Of a stretch of DNA of 28,496 nt, positions 4,037-10,823 are shown piece by piece. Each line of letters begins with the position of its first letter. Positions within the stretch are counted from its first letter, which is position 1. The translations under genes were made by a program, and so were the position numbers. Location: contig JBGSIV010000095.1 in assembly GCA_041742355.1 (NCBI GenBank), forward strand, positions 1 to 28,496, in the 5' to 3' direction. Below the pieces are notes generated by a model. It was not told the origin of the DNA and searched no databases. It saw nothing but the letters and a program-made list of their open reading frames with translations. This DNA is from Candidatus Zixiibacteriota bacterium (GTDB lineage Bacteria > Zixibacteria > MSB-5A5 > GN15 > FEB-12).

Positions 4037-5176
4037 TTAATCCTGAATGCCCGCCATTTCAATGGCCTTCTTCACAACTTTATCAAGAGTGTCTTCAAAA
4101 GGCAGATTGTACCGGGCGAGGATCTTGGCGGCTTCGGCTTCGTTCGTCCCGGTGAGTCTGACGACTATTGGCACGGAGGGTTTGAGTTCCTCCAGCGCCT
4201 GCACAAGGCCGTTAGCGACATCGTCACAACGAGTTATGCCGCCAAAGATGTTGATCAGGATGGCCCGGACATTGGGATCGGAGGTGATGATTTTGATCGC
4301 CGTGACCACTTTCTGAGGGTTAGATGATCCGCCGATATCGAGAAAATTGGCCGGCTCGGCACCGTACCGCTTAACCAAGTCCATCGTCGCCATGGCCAAA
4401 CCGGCGCCGTTGACCATGCAGCCGATCGTCCCGTCGAGCTTTACATACGACAGGTCGGCCTCGCGGGCTTGGATTTCGGTCTCTGGTTCGGCATCAAGAT
4501 CGCGCATCGCCGCAATCCCGGGCTGACGATAGAGTGCGTTGTCGTCGACGTTGAGCTTGGCGTCGATGGCGATCACGTTGCTCATGGCATCGGTGATGAG
4601 CGGGTTGATCTCGACCAGCGAGGCGTCGACTTTCCAGAAGACATCGTAGAGCTTCATGATGATATCGGCGGCCTGGCGGACCTGGTTGATATCGCGGAAC
4701 AACTTGTATGCGAGGTTGCGTGCCTGGAACATCTTGAGGCCGACCACCGGGTCGACCGCCAGTTTGTGAATCTTCTCGGGCGTCTTGGCCGCGACCTCTT
4801 CGATGTCGACGCCGCCCGCGGCGGAGACCATGATCACCGGGCGCTTGCTCGCGCGATCGAGAATGATCCCGACATATGCTTCAGAGATGATGTCCATCGC
4901 CTCGGTCACGAGAACCTTCTTCACGGTGAGACCCTTGATATCCATGCCAAGGATCGTGGTCGCCAGCACTTTCGCGGCTTCGGCGTTCTCGGCGTACTTC
5001 ACGCCTCCGGCTTTTCCGCGGCCGCCGACGTGTACCTGGGCTTTGACCATCACCGGTTTGTCGATGCGCGAGGCGATCTGGAATGCCTCAACCGGGGTGG
5101 TCGCCACCTCCCCGGCCGGAACGGGAATGCCGTTCTGCGCAAACACCTGTTTGGCCTGATACTCGTGAATCTTCAT
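4037..5176 (-). CDS. sucC: Succinyl-CoA synthetase beta subunit
   Basis: MKIHEYQAK, KAQVHVGGRGKAGGV, EINPL, NGAGLAMATMD, NFLDIGG and NIFGGITRCD. Confidence 0.97.
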   Translation of the reverse strand: MKIHEYQAKQVFAQNGIPVPAGEVATTPVEAFQIASRIDKPVMVKAQVHVGGRGKAGGVKYAENAEAAKVLATTILGMDIKGLTVKKVLVTEAMDIISEAYVGIILDRASKRPVIMVSAAGGVDIEEVAAKTPEKIHKLAVDPVVGLKMFQARNLAYKLFRDINQVRQAADIIMKLYDVFWKVDASLVEINPLITDAMSNVIAIDAKLNVDDNALYRQPGIAAMRDLDAEPETEIQAREADLSYVKLDGTIGCMVNGAGLAMATMDLVKRYGAEPANFLDIGGSSNPQKVVTAIKIITSDPNVRAILINIFGGITRCDDVANGLVQALEELKPSVPIVVRLTGTNEAEAAKILARYNLPFEDTLDKVVKKAIEMAGIQD

Positions 5177-6567
5177 ACGTCCGATTCCTTATCGTTTGTT
5201 CTATCCTTCGTTGACTCGTAATGCTCTTTCGCCAGCGCGGTCAGCCGCTCTGGTGTATTCTGGTCGGGGTCATCGAGCACCTGTTCCATCAGGTAGTCGA
5301 GAATCCGCCCGACTTCGCGCCCCGGACCGAGGCCAAGGATGCGCATGATATCGCCGCCATTGATGGCCAGATCACGCAGCGAGAAGGGAGGCTGTTTAGT
5401 CAGCTCGGCCCGAATATTCGTTTCGAACTCGTCGACATCGTCGGTGCTGCCACCCATTCCCTGTGCAACTACATCGGCCCGGCGCAGGTCCAGCAGCTCA
5501 AAGATGAGCGGCACGCCGACCTTGCGGATCAGCCGCCGCATTCCCTTGCCGGTGACGGCGGTCGTGAACATGTGGCGGTCAACCAGGGTCACGACCTGTT
5601 TCGCCAGTTCATTGGAGAGCTTCAATCGCCGCATCACCTGCTGAGCGGTGCGGGCCCCGAGGGTTTCGTGTCCGTAAAATGTCGCCGCCGGTTCCCCCTC
5701 GCGGATGATCGGGCGTTTGGCCTGCGGCTTGTTGATATCGTGGAATAGCGCCGCCAGCCGGACGCGGAAGTTCTTCGGGCTGGCATCGACCGCCCGCAGC
5801 GTATGCTCGAAAACATCGTACGCGTGATAGCCGCCGGGCTGGTCGACCCCGACACAATCCTGCAACTCGGGCAGGATCTCCCGCAGGAGGCCCGTCTGCT
5901 CCATCAGGCGAAATCCGATCGAGGGGCGGTCCGCGCGTTCCATGAGCTTGCGCAGTTCGTCGGCAATGCGTTCGGCCGAAACGGTGTGGATGAGCTGGAC
6001 GTTTTCGTTGAGCACGGCCAACGTCCGATCTTCGATCTCGAACTCGAAGCGGGACGCGAAGACGATAGCCCTGAGCATACGCAGGGGGTCATCGGTAAAC
6101 GACTCCGGGTAGACGATACGGATCAGCCGATTCTCGAGGTCCTTGCGGCCGTCGAGCGGGTCGATCAGCACGTCGGTGCCGAGTTCGATCGCCATGGCGT
6201 TGATCGTGAAGTCACGGCGCACCAGGTCATCCTCGACCGAGAGCGTCGGGTCATACTTCACTTTGAAGTCCTTGTGGCCGACGCCGGTTGAGTACTCGGT
6301 GCGCGGGAGGGAAATGTCGAAGGTCACCGGTTCGCCATCGCGGTACTCGGTGTACTTGATAACGCCGAAACTCCGGCCGACCAGATTAACCTGGCCGTGC
6401 CTCCGGAGAATTTGCGAGAGGTCGTCGTACGAAATGCCGGTGACGAGGATGTCGAGGTCATGGCCGCCCTGGCCGGTAAGTAACCGGTCCCTCACGGCGC
6501 CTCCGACTTCGTACATCCGACCTTTCTCCAAGACTGCGTTGATGGTTGCCTTTGACAGCTGCGCCAT
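5173..6567 (-). CDS. cca: Class II tRNA nucleotidyltransferase (CCA-adding enzyme) with HD domain
   Basis: VGGAVRD...DLD, RRDFTINA, DDPLRMLR, SAERI and HD motif LFHDINK. Overlaps the arcC stop (TAATG) and the sucC start (ATGA). CCA versus A-adding specificity is not resolved. Confidence 0.88.
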   Translation of the reverse strand: MAQLSKATINAVLEKGRMYEVGGAVRDRLLTGQGGHDLDILVTGISYDDLSQILRRHGQVNLVGRSFGVIKYTEYRDGEPVTFDISLPRTEYSTGVGHKDFKVKYDPTLSVEDDLVRRDFTINAMAIELGTDVLIDPLDGRKDLENRLIRIVYPESFTDDPLRMLRAIVFASRFEFEIEDRTLAVLNENVQLIHTVSAERIADELRKLMERADRPSIGFRLMEQTGLLREILPELQDCVGVDQPGGYHAYDVFEHTLRAVDASPKNFRVRLAALFHDINKPQAKRPIIREGEPAATFYGHETLGARTAQQVMRRLKLSNELAKQVVTLVDRHMFTTAVTGKGMRRLIRKVGVPLIFELLDLRRADVVAQGMGGSTDDVDEFETNIRAELTKQPPFSLRDLAINGGDIMRILGLGPGREVGRILDYLMEQVLDDPDQNTPERLTALAKEHYESTKDRTNDKESDV

Positions 6568-7520
6568 TACTTATCCGGGCGGATCCGCGTCCCCGCGGCG
6601 CCGTGGGCCGCCGCGTGGGCATTCTCCAGCGAGGTGATCACCACCTGCTTGCCGCCATTCTTTATGAACTGAATTGCCGCTTTGACTTTGGGACCCATCG
6701 ACCCGGCCGGGAAATGCCCCGCGCAGAGGTAATCCTCCAGCTCGGAGACGGTCACCTCTTCCAGTTTCCTCTCTTCGGGAGTGCCGAAGTCGACCGCGAC
6801 GTTATCCACAGCGGTGAGGATGCACAGGGTGTCCGCGCCGATTTCGTTGGCGAGCACGGACGACGCCAGATCCTTGTCGATGACGGCATCGAAACCTTCG
6901 TAGTAGCCGCGGTGATCGATATACACGGGAATACCGCCGCCGCCGGCGGCAACAACAATGTGCCCCTTGTCGACAAGATCCTTGATGACCTCGGCGTTGA
7001 TTACTTTGGTTGGGATCGGTGAGGGAACCACGCGGCGCCAGCCGCGCTTGCTGTCCAACTTCATCGACCAGCCGCGTTCCGTCTCAAAGCGCCGGGCTTC
7101 CTCTTCCGAGTAGAACTGGCCAATGAACTTGGTCGGGTTTTGCAGCGCCGGATCATCCATGTCGATGAGGATCTGCGTGATCAGAGTCACCACCCGGCGG
7201 TCGATCTTCTCGGTACCAAGCCGGTTCTGCAGTGATTGCTCGATCATATACCCCATGCCGCCTTCGGTGTCGGCCACCAGAACGCCCAGGGGGAGAACCG
7301 GCGTGCGGCCGCGGGACAGTTCCACGCGCAGAAGCGCGTTACCGACCTGCGGGCCGTTGCCGTGGGTGATGACGAGGTTGAAACCGTCGCGGGCCATCTC
7401 GACAATACTGTCGAGTGACTTGCGCGTGTTGGCGAACTGGTTGGCAATGGTGTCTTCCTGGTCCGGGCGCGTAATCGCGTTGCCCCCGAGGGCAACCACT
7501 GCGGTTCTCTTTGCGGACAT
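6567..7520 (-). CDS. arcC: Carbamate kinase
   Basis: VVALGGNA, THGNGPQVG, PTKFIG, RRVVPSP, GGGGIPV, AVIDKD and GSMGPKV. Confidence 0.97.
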   Translation of the reverse strand: MSAKRTAVVALGGNAITRPDQEDTIANQFANTRKSLDSIVEMARDGFNLVITHGNGPQVGNALLRVELSRGRTPVLPLGVLVADTEGGMGYMIEQSLQNRLGTEKIDRRVVTLITQILIDMDDPALQNPTKFIGQFYSEEEARRFETERGWSMKLDSKRGWRRVVPSPIPTKVINAEVIKDLVDKGHIVVAAGGGGIPVYIDHRGYYEGFDAVIDKDLASSVLANEIGADTLCILTAVDNVAVDFGTPEERKLEEVTVSELEDYLCAGHFPAGSMGPKVKAAIQFIKNGGKQVVITSLENAHAAAHGAAGTRIRPDK

Positions 7521-7591: not shown

Positions 7592-8965
7592 TTACTTCGT
7601 TCTCTTCTTCGGAACGGCTACCTTTACCGTCGCTTTCGACGGCGCCCCAATGAAGTTACAGAGGACGTCGTTGAGATTCGGGCGGCCGATCTCCTGGAGG
7701 CTATAGCCGACACGTACGGTGGGCTTGCGGATCTTGATAATCCGACCGAGGTCTATCGGCGTGGCAATGATCACGCTGTCGCATTCGGTCCGGTTGATCG
7801 TGGTCTCGAGATCCTTGACCTGTTTGTCGCCGTAGCCCATCGCCGGCAGCAGCATGCCGATCCCCGGGTACTTCTCGTAAGTCTCGGTGATCGACTTGAC
7901 CGTGTACGGCCGCGGGTCGACCAGCGCCGCCGCGCCGAACTTCTCGGCCGCGACGACCCCAGCGCCGTAGGCCATCTCGCCGTGGGTCAGGGTCGGACCG
8001 TCCTCAACCACCAGCACCCGCTTGCCGCGGATGAGCGACGGATTGTCAACTTCCAGCGGCGAAGCTCCGTCGATGACGATCGCCTTCGGATTGTAGGCGG
8101 CGATGTTCCCACGCACCTCGGCGATCCCTTCCGGGTCGGCCGAATCGATCTTGTTGATCACGACCACATCGGCCAGGAGCAGGTTGTTCTGGCCGGGGTA
8201 GTAGGAAATCTCATGCCCCGGACGGTGCGGGTCGACGACCGTAATGTACAGGTCCGGCCGGTAGAACGACATGTCGTTATTGCCGCCGTCCCAAAGGATC
8301 ACGTCGGCTTCCTTCTCGGCCTCGCGGATGATCTTCTCGTAGTCAACGCCCGCGTAGACAACTACACCTTTCATGATGTGCGGCTCGTACTCCTCCCGCT
8401 CCTCAATCGTGCACTCGTGCTTGTCGAGATCGGAGAGCTTGGCGAAGCGCTGCACGGCCTGCTTGGCCAGGTCGCCGTACGGCATGGGGTGGCGGATCGC
8501 CACGACCTTCTTGCCGAGCGACTGCAGGACTTCGGCCACCTTGCGGGTGGTCTGGGACTTGCCGCACCCGGTGCGCACGGCGCACACGGCCACGACCGGC
8601 TTAGACGATTTGATCATGGTCGGCAGGCCGCCTTCGACCGCGAAGCGGGCGCCGGCCGCCATGACGTATGCCGCTTTCTCCATGATGTACTGGTACGGAA
8701 CATCGGAATAGGAGAACACGACTTCGTCGACCTTGTGCTTGCGGATCAGATCCATCAGCTCGGACTCGGCGTGGATCGGGATGCCGTTCGGGTAATTCTT
8801 GCCCGCGAGTACCTTCGGGTACTTGCGCCCATCGATATCGGGAATCTGGGTAGCCGTGAAGGCCACGACTTCAACGTCGTCATTGTCACGGTACAGCACG
8901 TTGAAGTTGTGGAAGTCGCGCCCGGCGGCGCCCATGATGATTATTCTCTTCTTAGTCTTAGCCAC
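7592..8965 (-). CDS. arcE: CpgS-family P-loop NTPase, probable arginine synthetase (ArcE-like)
   Basis: N-terminal IIMGAAGRDFHNFN...VAFTATQIP, P-loop AVRTGCGKS, RHPMPYG, IEEREEYE, WDGGNND, VVEDGPT and LPAMGY. Adjacent to carbamate kinase. GTG start at 8965 follows GGAGG. Confidence 0.75.
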   Translation of the reverse strand: MAKTKKRIIIMGAAGRDFHNFNVLYRDNDDVEVVAFTATQIPDIDGRKYPKVLAGKNYPNGIPIHAESELMDLIRKHKVDEVVFSYSDVPYQYIMEKAAYVMAAGARFAVEGGLPTMIKSSKPVVAVCAVRTGCGKSQTTRKVAEVLQSLGKKVVAIRHPMPYGDLAKQAVQRFAKLSDLDKHECTIEEREEYEPHIMKGVVVYAGVDYEKIIREAEKEADVILWDGGNNDMSFYRPDLYITVVDPHRPGHEISYYPGQNNLLLADVVVINKIDSADPEGIAEVRGNIAAYNPKAIVIDGASPLEVDNPSLIRGKRVLVVEDGPTLTHGEMAYGAGVVAAEKFGAAALVDPRPYTVKSITETYEKYPGIGMLLPAMGYGDKQVKDLETTINRTECDSVIIATPIDLGRIIKIRKPTVRVGYSLQEIGRPNLNDVLCNFIGAPSKATVKVAVPKKRTK

Positions 8966-8966
8966 G

Positions 8967-9105
8967 TTGAACCTCCGGTTCAATTCGAAGTTTTCGGTTT
9001 ACCATGTCACACGGTCGCCCGGACCGGGGGCCATTGTATGCTTGACGCCCGCCAGAGGTGCTGGACGAGGTACGTTGGTTTGTACCCGCCGTGGTCATGG
9101 TAAAC
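8967..9105 (-). promoter_or_regulatory. Candidate structured 5' leader (riboswitch-like) with SD-sequestering hairpin
   Basis: A 10-bp perfect long-range stem (8997-9006/9096-9105) encloses several short hairpins. The 7-bp hairpin TTGAACC-GGA-GGTTCAA covers the GGAGG SD. Confidence 0.45.
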
Positions 9106-9175
9106 GTACTTACAGCGCAAGTAGAGTTCCTTCTCGATTTCCGTACAGCGCGCGGCACATGTTCGCATCTGCCGC

Positions 9176-9245
9176 GTAGGGGCGGGGCTTGTCTCCGCCC
9201 CCCTCATCGTCCCACGTCAAACACGCAGAGCCGTGTTTGACCTAC
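9176..9245. repeat. Inverted pair of GTAG-headed REP-like hairpins (REPIN/BIME-like)
   Basis: Plus strand: GTAG-GGGCGGGG-CTTGT-CTCCGCCC (9176-9200). Minus strand: GTAG-GTCAAACACG-GCTCTG-CGTGTTTGAC (9245-9216). Confidence 0.6.
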
Positions 9246-9252
9246 CGCTTCG

Positions 9253-10746
9253 TTATTCGTTGTCGATCTGCGCGCGCTGGAGCTTGCCGGAGAAGTCGAC
9301 ATACACCGACTTCCATTCGGTGAAGACATCGAGCGCCGCAGTGGCCGCTTCGCGGTGGCCGTTGCCGGTTTCTTTCGTGCCGCCAAACGGCAGGTGCGTC
9401 TCGGCGCCGATGGTCGGCGCGTTGACGTAGAAAATCCCGGTGTAGACGTCGCGCATCGCGGTATAGGCCTTGTTGATATCCTGGGTGTAGATCGACGCCG
9501 ACAACCCGTAGGGCGTGTCGTTGGCCATTTCGATCGCGTTGTCGAGGTTGCTGCAGACAGCGATCGAGAGCACCGGGCCGAAGACCTCTTCGCGCCAAAT
9601 ACGCATCGCCTGGGTCACCTCGCCGAAGATGGTCGGCTGGATGAACCAACCCTTATCGTACGTGCCGCCGGTGAGACGCTGGCCGCCGCACATGAGTTTC
9701 GCGCCTTCGTTCTTCGCGATGTCGGCGTATCCGAGCGACGTGTTCAATTGATCTTCGTTGATGTGCGGTCCCATCTGCGTTTTGGGATCAAGGCCGTTGC
9801 CGACCCGAATCGCTTTGGCCCGTTCGACCATCATTTCGGTGAATTTCTTCACGACGTCCTTGTGGCAGACAATACGGCTGGTGGCGGTGCAGCGTTGACC
9901 GGTGGTGCCGAATGCGCCCCACAGCGCGCCCTCGACCGCGAGGTCGAGCCGGGCGTCGTCCATGACGATCATCACGTTCTTGCCACCCATCTCGAGGCAG
10001 GTATGTTTGAACTCGGAAGCGCAGGCCTCCGAAATCTTGCGGCCGATCTCGGTCGAACCGGTGAACGAAACCACGCGCACGCGCTTATCCTTGATAAGCG
10101 GATCGCCCAGCGCGCCGCCGGAGCCGGTCACGACATTGAACACGCCGGCCGGGACGCCTTCCTCGTGGAGGATGCGGCCGAAGTTAACGACTGAGAGCGG
10201 AGTATCAGTGGCCGGCTTGATCACAACCGTGTTGCCGGCGATGAGCGCGGGCATTGATTTCCACGACGGGATCGCCATCGGGAAATTCCACGGCGTGATG
10301 AAGGTGCAAACGCCGAGCGGCTGGCGAACGGTCATATTGAACTTGTTCTTGAGCTCCGATGGCGTCGTCATTCCGAACAGTCGGCGGCCTTCGCCGGCCA
10401 TGTAGAAGGTCATGTCGATCGCTTCCTGAACGTCCCCCTTGGTCTCGTCGAGGACCTTGCCCATTTCGCGCGTCATGTCTTCGGCTAGCTTGTCTTTCTC
10501 TTTTTGCAGGCGGGTGGCGACGCGGTAGAGGATCTCGCCGCGTTTGGGGGCCGGGACGAGACGCCACGATTTGTAGGCCTCAGCAGCAGCGTCGATGGCG
10601 TCTTTCACGTCGTCGGCGTTGGACTTCTGAAAAAGGCCGACGACTTCGTCGGTGTTGGCCGGGTTAATATTCTCGTAGCACTTCCCCGATTTCGAGTTCA
10701 CCCACTCCCCATTGATCAGATTCTGGTAGACTTTCGGCTGGCTCAT
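9253..10746 (-). CDS. NAD(P)-dependent aldehyde dehydrogenase (semialdehyde dehydrogenase-like; substrate unknown)
   Basis: [25 protein letters not shown] (catalytic Glu), GQRC (catalytic Cys), EEVFGPV and PFGG. ATG 10746 follows GAGGAGG. Confidence 0.93.
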
Positions 10747-10805
10747 GTTGGCCTCCTCTAAAACTATTCGCAGCAGATACTTATCGTGACCGAACTGATC
10801 GAGAA

Positions 10806-10823
10806 TTGTGAATAAATTCACAC
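10806..10823. promoter_or_regulatory. Rex-type (or CRP/ArcR-type) palindromic operator
   Basis: TTGTGAA-TAAA-TTCACAC has one mismatch to the Rex consensus TTGTGAA-N4-TTCACAA and exactly matches TGTGA-N6-TCACA. It lies between the promoter and the ALDH start. Confidence 0.65.

Follow-up and report, generated by a model that had tools for sequence, protein, structure and literature searches.

A conserved small open reading frame upstream of arcE in Zixibacteria is a candidate regulatory leader peptide of the arginine synthetase pathway

A 28,496-nucleotide (nt) stretch of DNA from a Candidatus Zixiibacteriota bacterium (GenBank assembly GCA_041742355.1, contig JBGSIV010000095.1, positions 1 to 28,496; hereafter, the window) carries on its minus strand a small open reading frame (ORF) in the gap between an aldehyde dehydrogenase gene and the genes for an ArcE-like protein and carbamate kinase (arcE and arcC). 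Here we describe this small ORF, its distribution across Zixibacteria and the evidence that bears on its function. The conserved leader ORF is new and, on comparative sequence evidence, well supported. We infer that it acts in cis as a regulatory leader peptide of the ribosome-arrest type, which would couple a metabolite—most plausibly arginine—to the expression of arcE–arcC, and we give this reading a probability of about one half. The original prediction, made from the window sequence alone, had placed an undescribed riboswitch of about 110 nt at the same position.

To our knowledge, only a handful of nascent peptides make the ribosome sense a small metabolite, namely TnaC (tryptophan), SpeFL (ornithine) and the fungal AAP (arginine). 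Work on each of them has shed light on how the exit tunnel binds ligands. A conserved and unannotated leader ORF linked to arcE would contribute a candidate sensor from an uncultivated phylum, and would be the first proposed regulatory element of the arginine synthetase pathway. According to the report that described ArcE as an arginine synthetase in 2024, its homologs had earlier been annotated as hypothetical proteins or GTPases and weakly resemble cyclic 2,3-diphosphoglycerate (cDPG) synthase, and arcE and arcC together constitute an arginine-breakdown route that yields ATP (PMC11032458).

The family was assembled from arcE-upstream DNA of 40 related genomes and from a scan of 80 arcE loci of many phyla. 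Upstream DNA was available for 28 relatives, and 25 of these, like the window, have the small ORF in the gap between the dehydrogenase gene and arcE; its motif recurs in 5 of the 80 loci (four Zixibacteria-like and one from a metagenome-assembled genome (MAG) labelled Ignavibacteria), which together give a set of 31 peptides. Their consensus is M-x-R-C-K-[YF]-I, followed by a variable linker with one frequent Gly and then by [YF]-[LM]-[IL]-x-[FYH]-[IL]-W-x-[AS]-S-[SA]-[IV]; in short form, MxRCKxI-x5-G-x3-LYLILxIWxASSI and then a stop. The Trp (W23) and one Ser (S26) are invariant across the set, and a single conserved Arg occupies position 3 in 20 of the 31 members. The usual length is 28–30 codons, with forms of 29 and 36 amino acids that differ in the length and sequence of the linker. 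Translation would start at TTG (14 members), ATG (14) or GTG (3), in most cases 22–24 codons before the Trp, and stops exactly 6 codons past the Trp in 28 of the 31, at TGA (15), TAA (8) or TAG (8). Shine–Dalgarno (SD)-like motifs precede 20 of the 31 members, as compared with 27% of control windows, and the start of arcE follows 57–89 nt past the position at which the family usually stops.

Codon-level analysis of the last 15 codons gave entropies of 0.94, 0.70 and 1.43 for the first, second and third codon positions and a ratio of nonsynonymous to synonymous variation (pN/pS) of 0.44. All four TCN codons are used for the invariant Ser (position +3 from the Trp), and the Ser at +4 is encoded by AGC in the window and by TCN elsewhere; synonymous variation extends to Ala (GCN) and Leu (CTN and TTG). 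In the alignment, conservation of the DNA ends abruptly at the stop codon. On this comparative evidence, selection is acting on the peptide and not on an RNA fold. As in known arrest peptides, a short ORF stands directly upstream of metabolic genes on the same strand, and amino acid conservation is concentrated near the C terminus at a fixed distance from the stop.

A profile built from the 31 peptides was then used in a six-frame search of 201 Zixibacteria genomes and matched 80 of them; by our own tally, 23 of the 80 had themselves supplied rows of the model. Matches occurred in 56 of 72 genomes of the window's family, in 9 of 12 and 6 of 21 genomes of two sister families and in 5 of 17 genomes of a further family. 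A total of 74 of the 82 profile matches lie 65–94 nt upstream of arcE on the same strand; 2 do not, both of them weak second matches in genomes that also have an arcE-adjacent one, and the place of arcE is not listed for the remaining 6. The genome of the window contains one significant match, which is this locus. A motif search identified the dehydrogenase gene upstream of the small ORF in 30 of the 31 loci; for the window, Pfam identified it. With a dehydrogenase gene upstream and arcE downstream, the small ORF is an intercistronic element of a dehydrogenase–small ORF–arcE–arcC unit. In one locus (L010, genome G012) and in two genera (g10 and g50), arcE has the dehydrogenase gene upstream and no small ORF by profile (0 of 3 and 0 of 7 genomes for the two genera), which suggests that the leader was lost or replaced within the family; the gap in L010 holds a different ORF of 13 codons.

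The 109-nt element that had been drawn as a riboswitch coincides with the small ORF of the window (9120–9007), as the 5′ arm of its closing stem spans codons 6–9 and the 3′ arm comes right after the stop codon. The individual elements of that drawing are all readable in the sequence. The closing stem (GUUUACCAUG/CAUGGUAAAC) is a perfect 10-base pair (bp) inverted repeat on the minus (mRNA) strand, and the CACGG/CCGUG extension, the hairpins GGUAC-8nt-GUACC, CCAG-CACCU-CUGG and GCCC-7nt-GGGC and the linker GUCAAGCAUACAAUG are present, with 13 nt between the end of the 3′ arm and the hairpin UUGAACC-GGA-GGUUCAA that holds the arcE SD sequence. The predicted minimum free energy (MFE) structure retains the closing stem, its extension and the GGUAC hairpin, and pairs the bases of the CCAG/CUGG and GCCC/GGGC hairpins differently. 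The exact 109 nt (8997–9105) have an MFE of −46.4 kcal/mol (z = −2.90; 2 of 200 dinucleotide shuffles were equally stable), the 171-nt context folds with a z of −2.35, and the arcE ribosome-binding site (RBS) of the window has a predicted unpaired probability of 0.28. Perfect 10-nt inverted repeats within 120 nt of each other are not rare in this DNA: the 28.5-kb window contains 50 such pairs (10-nt seed), many of them short palindromes.

A multi-way-junction aptamer for arginine, citrulline, ornithine or a nucleotide would suit this stable fold, the arginine-pathway genes downstream and the presence of the element as a single copy: the stretch 8985–9125 matches only itself in its own 4.37-Mb genome and is therefore not a miniature inverted-repeat transposable element (MITE). 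The absence of a match to known riboswitch classes also holds, as Rfam gives 0 matches at the gathering threshold across the whole window, and at E ≤ 10 over 8900–9300 the sole match is a chance small nucleolar RNA on the other strand. The fold itself is not kept in relatives. When it was projected onto an alignment of the 31 orthologous arcE leaders, 46.7% of cells could pair, against 43.4% in shuffles and 35–41% with slid partners; the closing stem could pair in 42.7% of cells, and RNAalifold returned 0 consensus pairs. Within the window's genus, the closing stem has a 7-bp counterpart (CGTTTAC/GTAAACG) in L004 and none in L003 or L005, and is thus missing from two of four genomes. The nucleotides that are conserved show codon periodicity and end at the stop codon. 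With neither conservation nor covariation of the drawn pairs, and with conservation at the level of amino acids, we regard an RNA aptamer as very improbable. What survives of the original prediction is the outline of a cis element that is undescribed, single-copy, conserved, located before arcE-like and carbamate kinase genes and plausibly responsive to an arginine-pathway metabolite; the sensor would be the nascent leader peptide rather than the RNA. The case illustrates how a conserved mini-ORF may be mistaken for a riboswitch if a single sequence is all that is read.

In layout the small ORF resembles TnaC and SpeFL, as it is short and combines an N-terminal motif, a variable linker and an aromatic and hydrophobic block beside a stop that can be any of the three codons. 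TnaC has a conserved Trp at a fixed distance from its C-terminal end, as does the small ORF, but relies on one stop codon and its release factor, whereas the small-ORF family uses any stop. The logic shared with TnaC would be induction by the substrate. The two have no sequence similarity, and the Rho-dependent read-out of TnaC finds no support in the spacer composition here. Both TnaC, which senses tryptophan ahead of the tryptophanase operon (PMC8429421), and the small-ORF peptide fall in the range of 24–29 residues and precede catabolic genes for an amino acid.

The comparison with SpeFL, the ornithine-sensing leader of speF–potE in gammaproteobacteria, goes further. As described in its report (10.1101/604074), SpeFL is a short leader (34 codons, compared with 29 for the small ORF) directly before genes of the arginine and ornithine branch, it is bipartite, with an N-terminal motif followed by a C-terminal aromatic and hydrophobic block beside the stop, all three stop codons are in use across species, and the 3′ end of its ORF takes part in an RNA helix; each of these features has a counterpart, in the case of the helix a predicted one, in the small ORF. 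The same report gives a spacer of 257 nt for SpeFL, whereas that of the small ORF is about 70 nt, and puts SpeFL at the 5′ end of the transcript, whereas the small ORF is intercistronic, starting 1–72 nt past the dehydrogenase gene in relatives (10.1101/604074). Because the spacer of the small ORF is not C-rich, Rho loading is not evident, unlike that reported for SpeFL (10.1101/604074). There is no sequence similarity between the two; the likeness is one of sequence layout, and stalling and ligand are proposed here by analogy.

By that analogy, the N-terminal basic motif and the tunnel would capture the ligand, and the C-terminal aromatic and hydrophobic block would then hinder termination or elongation, as in SpeFL and TnaC; the whole chain of 29 residues would fit inside the exit tunnel. 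As the substrate of the pathway, arginine is the most plausible signal. A ribosome arrested on the C-terminal block would hold helices between the spacer and the ends of the ORF open, and the open helices would raise the transcription or translation of arcE–arcC independently of the dehydrogenase gene, which might serve other substrates as well.

The proposal that an arrested ribosome keeps such helices open comes from an alignment-free test in which segments of the ORF were paired with the downstream spacer in the 31 leaders and compared with dinucleotide shuffles. Pairing exceeded that of shuffles for the first 11 codons (mean z = −0.73; 6 of 31 below −2) and the last 11 codons (mean z = −0.69; 4 of 31 below −2), and the controls had no excess (+0.17 for the middle of the ORF and +0.35 for the 3′ end of the dehydrogenase gene, 0 of 31 in both cases). 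The spacer partner of the 5′ segment starts 1–25 nt past the stop, inside or beside the stretch that a ribosome held at the ORF end would cover. Because such excess pairing of the ORF ends is seen in a little over one-third of lineages, the closing stem seen in the window may be one lineage's version of a recurrent, non-homologous feature. Some short words also recur in the spacers: TGAAC, TTGAA, GATGA and TAACC are 3–5-fold enriched over shuffles in the 31 loci. TCATC, from the Ser-Ser codons near the end of the small ORF, is complementary to GATGA, and TTGA often stands immediately 5′ of the GGAG of arcE.

The same pairing could be taken to mean that the act of translation is what matters, with ribosome traffic opening and closing helices between the ORF ends and the spacer and the peptide conserved for a secondary reason. 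Such a mechanism would account for the pairing of both ends in contrast to the controls, for the 10-bp stem of the window, which joins codons 6–9 to bases directly past the stop, and for leader folds whose stability somewhat exceeds that of shuffles (mean z = −0.99). It leaves unexplained the conservation of amino acids, the synonymous variation and the fixed distance from Trp to stop; furthermore, 13 of the 31 leaders have no excess pairing (z > 0), and the helices are not homologous. We therefore consider traffic without a functional peptide to be improbable.

Several observations weigh against arrest on a regulatory peptide. Although arcE is present in 194 of the 201 Zixibacteria genomes, 114 of these 194 have no profile match, including whole genera of the window's own family. 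Tests of three simple read-outs gave no support for any of them. When a ribosome footprint was forced at the last sense codon, the predicted accessibility of the arcE RBS rose in 6 and fell in 5 of the 31 leaders, as compared with 6 and 8 for a control footprint; terminator-like hairpins occur in 1 of the 31 spacers, against 1.2 in shuffles; and the spacers are A-rich with more G than C (334 C and 489 G among 2,082 nt), not C-rich as a Rho utilization (rut) site would be. The stability of the leader fold is only slightly beyond that of controls (mean z of −0.99 with 7 of 31 below −2, against −0.64 with 4 of 31). The canonical stop is lost in three members, which read through CAA for 9 further codons (the window), GGG for 14 (L003:2898-3023) and TGG for 1 (L016:2919-3008). 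The arginine link comes from gene context, by which arginine is the most plausible ligand and citrulline or ornithine are also candidates, and we found no RNA runs that contain the locus. The one resemblance to an arginine-responsive peptide is faint: among the 31 peptides, Pfam gave a single sub-threshold hit, which aligns residues 17–27 of the window peptide (YLVQHLWRASS) with positions 13–23 of the 23-position model PF08252 (Leader_CPA1, the arg-2/CPA1 leader peptide) at an E value of 0.054. Its score was 13.3 bits, compared with a gathering cut-off of 18.5, and the other 30 peptides had no hit; in the genomes of the 40 relatives, chance hits that scored equally well or better fell elsewhere and none fell on the small ORF.

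The loss of the stop bears on where a ribosome could stall. An extension is present in two of the four genomes from the window's genus, and a second sample (X2, record 15) has a contig identical to the window over 9024–9195, the CAA codon included. Given three members without the canonical stop, stalling exactly at termination cannot be universal, and the peptide, if it stalls ribosomes, must do so during elongation too.

The main rival to a cis-acting leader is a trans-acting micro-protein, either a small subunit or modulator of ArcE or ArcC or a membrane-associated peptide. Purifying selection on the peptide and its constant co-location with arcE would fit this alternative, as would the lack of a conserved downstream RNA switch in the RBS-accessibility and terminator tests. 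The C-terminal half is hydrophobic in many members, with a best 19-residue Kyte–Doolittle window above 1.6 in 8 of the 31; in most, however, the uncharged stretch is too short for a membrane helix, and E/Q, R, D and H occur inside the hydrophobic block in several lineages. The freedom of the linker to vary in length and sequence also speaks against a micro-protein. Finally, the archaeal ArcE is reported to be active as a single purified protein (PMC11032458).

A further argument comes from a second mini-ORF before arcE, of 18 codons, with the pattern M-[IK]-K-[FY]-[IL]-x-x-[IL]-[LI]-x-[FY]-[RKEQ]-[QN]-x-F-G-[FY]-[ST]-stop. It lies 46–87 nt before arcE in 11 of 27 arcE loci from the class of a Neomarinimicrobiota MAG, and also occurs, with gaps of up to about 210 nt, in four loci labelled Lutibacter, Nitrospina, Bacteroidota and Calditrichaeota. 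Its Gly codon varies (GGG, GGT and GGC), and in two loci the ORF abuts a gene resembling pyrroline-5-carboxylate (P5C) dehydrogenase. Alignment of the two families with hhalign detected no relation between them. Two unrelated mini-ORFs at the same place before arcE favour position-dependent regulation, which explains them more easily than two partner proteins would, and with the second family leader-ORF control of arcE would appear recurrent. On balance, we hold the micro-protein to be unlikely, if less so than any of the other alternatives.

The PF08252 hit raised the question of a relation to AAP. The same model, run in six frames against the genome of the window, has the small ORF as its top hit (12.3 bits, E = 0.94). 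The critical Asp of AAP, which we take to lie just before the aligned Tyr, has no counterpart, with Asp at that place (column −7) in 0 of the 31 members. On account of this lack, the sub-threshold score, the 30 peptides without a hit and the chance hits in relatives, we rejected membership of the AAP family; the likeness, confined to the window's genus, is either convergence or chance. AAP and the small ORF have about 24–29 codons and precede arginine-pathway genes, but AAP represses a eukaryotic biosynthetic gene by blocking scanning, whereas the target of the small ORF is catabolic and bacterial. In published accounts, the fungal AAP stalls ribosomes at its own stop codon in response to arginine (PMC7969011, PMC11550727), and the D13N substitution in the yeast peptide is described as abolishing arginine regulation (PMC7969011).

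A bolder extension of the arrest-leader reading, which we think unlikely, is that bacteria have arginine-sensing nascent peptides of their own. The 29-residue Zixibacteria leader and, independently, the 18-residue leader (in Marinisomatota-like bacteria and Bacteroidota) would then turn the ribosome into a sensor of arginine by which the ATP-yielding arginine synthetase pathway is induced, and the window's genus would have converged on a Tyr-Leu-x-x-His-Leu-Trp-Arg-Ala core that the AAP model of Pfam recognizes.

A bacterial leader ORF with a tie to arginine availability has been described for Staphylococcus aureus. As reported there, rbfL responds to arginine limitation because its rare Arg codons are decoded slowly, and it overlaps the RBS of its target (PMC13009471). 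The small ORF, for which the tie to arginine is proposed from its context, differs from rbfL (PMC13009471) in having one conserved Arg codon (that at position 3), a distance of about 70 nt from arcE and conservation in residues other than Arg. We also rejected a classical amino acid attenuation leader, as Arg codons do not occur in a run and the spacers are not enriched in terminator-like hairpins (1 of 31, against 1.2 in shuffles).

The peptide family is almost absent from databases. NCBIfam gave no match to any of the 31 peptides, and Pfam gave none above its cut-off. Searches of protein databases of 5.8 billion sequences and of 1.84 billion representatives returned 3 and 7 matches to the family, respectively, one of the 7 being spurious; the only name on the matches is 'hypothetical protein'. 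With the window peptide, a sequence search of the PDB produced only chance matches to lectin repeats, which involve the window-specific extension, and the ESM Atlas had no usable match. A full-text literature search for the AAP peptide strings gave no match. We found no described arcE leader ORF or bacterial arginine-sensing arrest peptide in the literature; the gene-cluster and distribution supplements of PMC11032458 were outside this search and might show these loci.

The positions of the small ORF, of the drawn stem and of the neighbouring genes are collected in Table 1. The arcE-like gene of the window fits, on its sequence, the published description of arcE homologs: it encodes a protein of around 460 amino acids, its relatives carry the names 'cyclic 2,3-diphosphoglycerate synthase' or 'GTPase', its best match in the PDB is cDPG synthetase (a weak similarity, E = 3e-6) and it adjoins arcC. 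The characterized enzyme is TK2200 of Thermococcus kodakarensis. The gap between the dehydrogenase gene and the arcE-like gene is 287 nt. No NCBIfam equivalog cut-off was reached for the dehydrogenase gene, and a scan of 8900–9400 for promoter and terminator consensus sequences found none on the minus strand.

Table 1 Positions of the small ORF, the drawn stem and neighbouring features in the window, with examples of the 18-codon ORF in other loci
Feature	Position	Strand	Basis or remark
Small ORF, candidate leader peptide, 37 codons; TTG start 9120-9118, TGA stop 9009-9007	9007..9120	-	Peptide MRCKYVYHDHGGYKPTYLVQHLWRASSI + QWPPVRATV; translation, orthologous ORFs, protein alignment and codon analysis
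Conserved core of 28 codons; last residue Ile28 (ATA 9039-9037), the usual end of the family	9037..9120	-	Six-frame profile match 9037-9117, E 2.9e-12
Window-specific extension of 9 codons; CAA (9036-9034) where 28/31 have a stop	9010..9036	-	Comparison of stop positions, DNA alignment
Purine-rich SD-like sequence GAGAAGGAA, 6-14 nt 5′ of the TTG start	9127..9135	-	Read in the sequence
Closing stem, 5′ arm GUUUACCAUG	9105-9096	-	Spans codons 6-9 of the small ORF
Closing stem, 3′ arm CAUGGUAAAC	9006-8997	-	Begins immediately past the TGA stop of the window
Remainder of spacer, including hairpin UUGAACC-GGA-GGUUCAA (8983-8967)	8966..8996	-	Hairpin holds the arcE SD GGAGG (8976-8972)
arcE-like gene, 457 amino acids, GTG start at 8965	7592..8965	-	Weak CobW Pfam hit, no other
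Carbamate kinase gene arcC	6567..7520	-	TIGR00746, 390 bits vs cut-off 358
Aldehyde dehydrogenase gene, directly 5′ of the small ORF	9253..10821	-	PF00171, E 4e-169; semialdehyde dehydrogenase type
Two REP-like palindromes between the dehydrogenase gene and the small ORF	9160..9252	.	63 matches in the window's own genome; outside the conserved leader
18-codon ORF, examples	L061:2384-2437, L070:1823-1876, L065:2304-2357, L076:1521-1574, L083:843-899; loci L145-L167		

The palindromes between the dehydrogenase gene and the small ORF (9160–9255) look like repetitive extragenic palindromic (REP) sequences or bacterial interspersed mosaic elements (BIMEs). Their modules (around 9214–9247 and 9172–9201) occur elsewhere as single copies in both orientations and in tandem clusters, including five copies about 59 nt apart on contig C238 (494–761); such a regular-period array could be something else. 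Relatives lack the insertion at this locus, where only 1–72 nt separate the dehydrogenase stop from the start of the small ORF.

On the 3′ side of arcC, the minus strand continues with a gene resembling that of the CCA-adding enzyme and then with sucCD and korAB. The CCA-adding-enzyme-like ORF (5173–6567) meets or overlaps the range of the arcC ORF at base 6567, so that a tRNA nucleotidyltransferase-like gene and, further downstream, sucCD and korAB may share a transcript with the arginine genes. Contig depth, when summed, reaches a 100-fold peak over 8901–8934 of the window in four metagenome runs. This peak covers the N-terminal P-loop-like stretch of arcE (the GAAGRDFHNFN region), and DNA nearly identical over this motif is evidently present in many different organisms of those samples.

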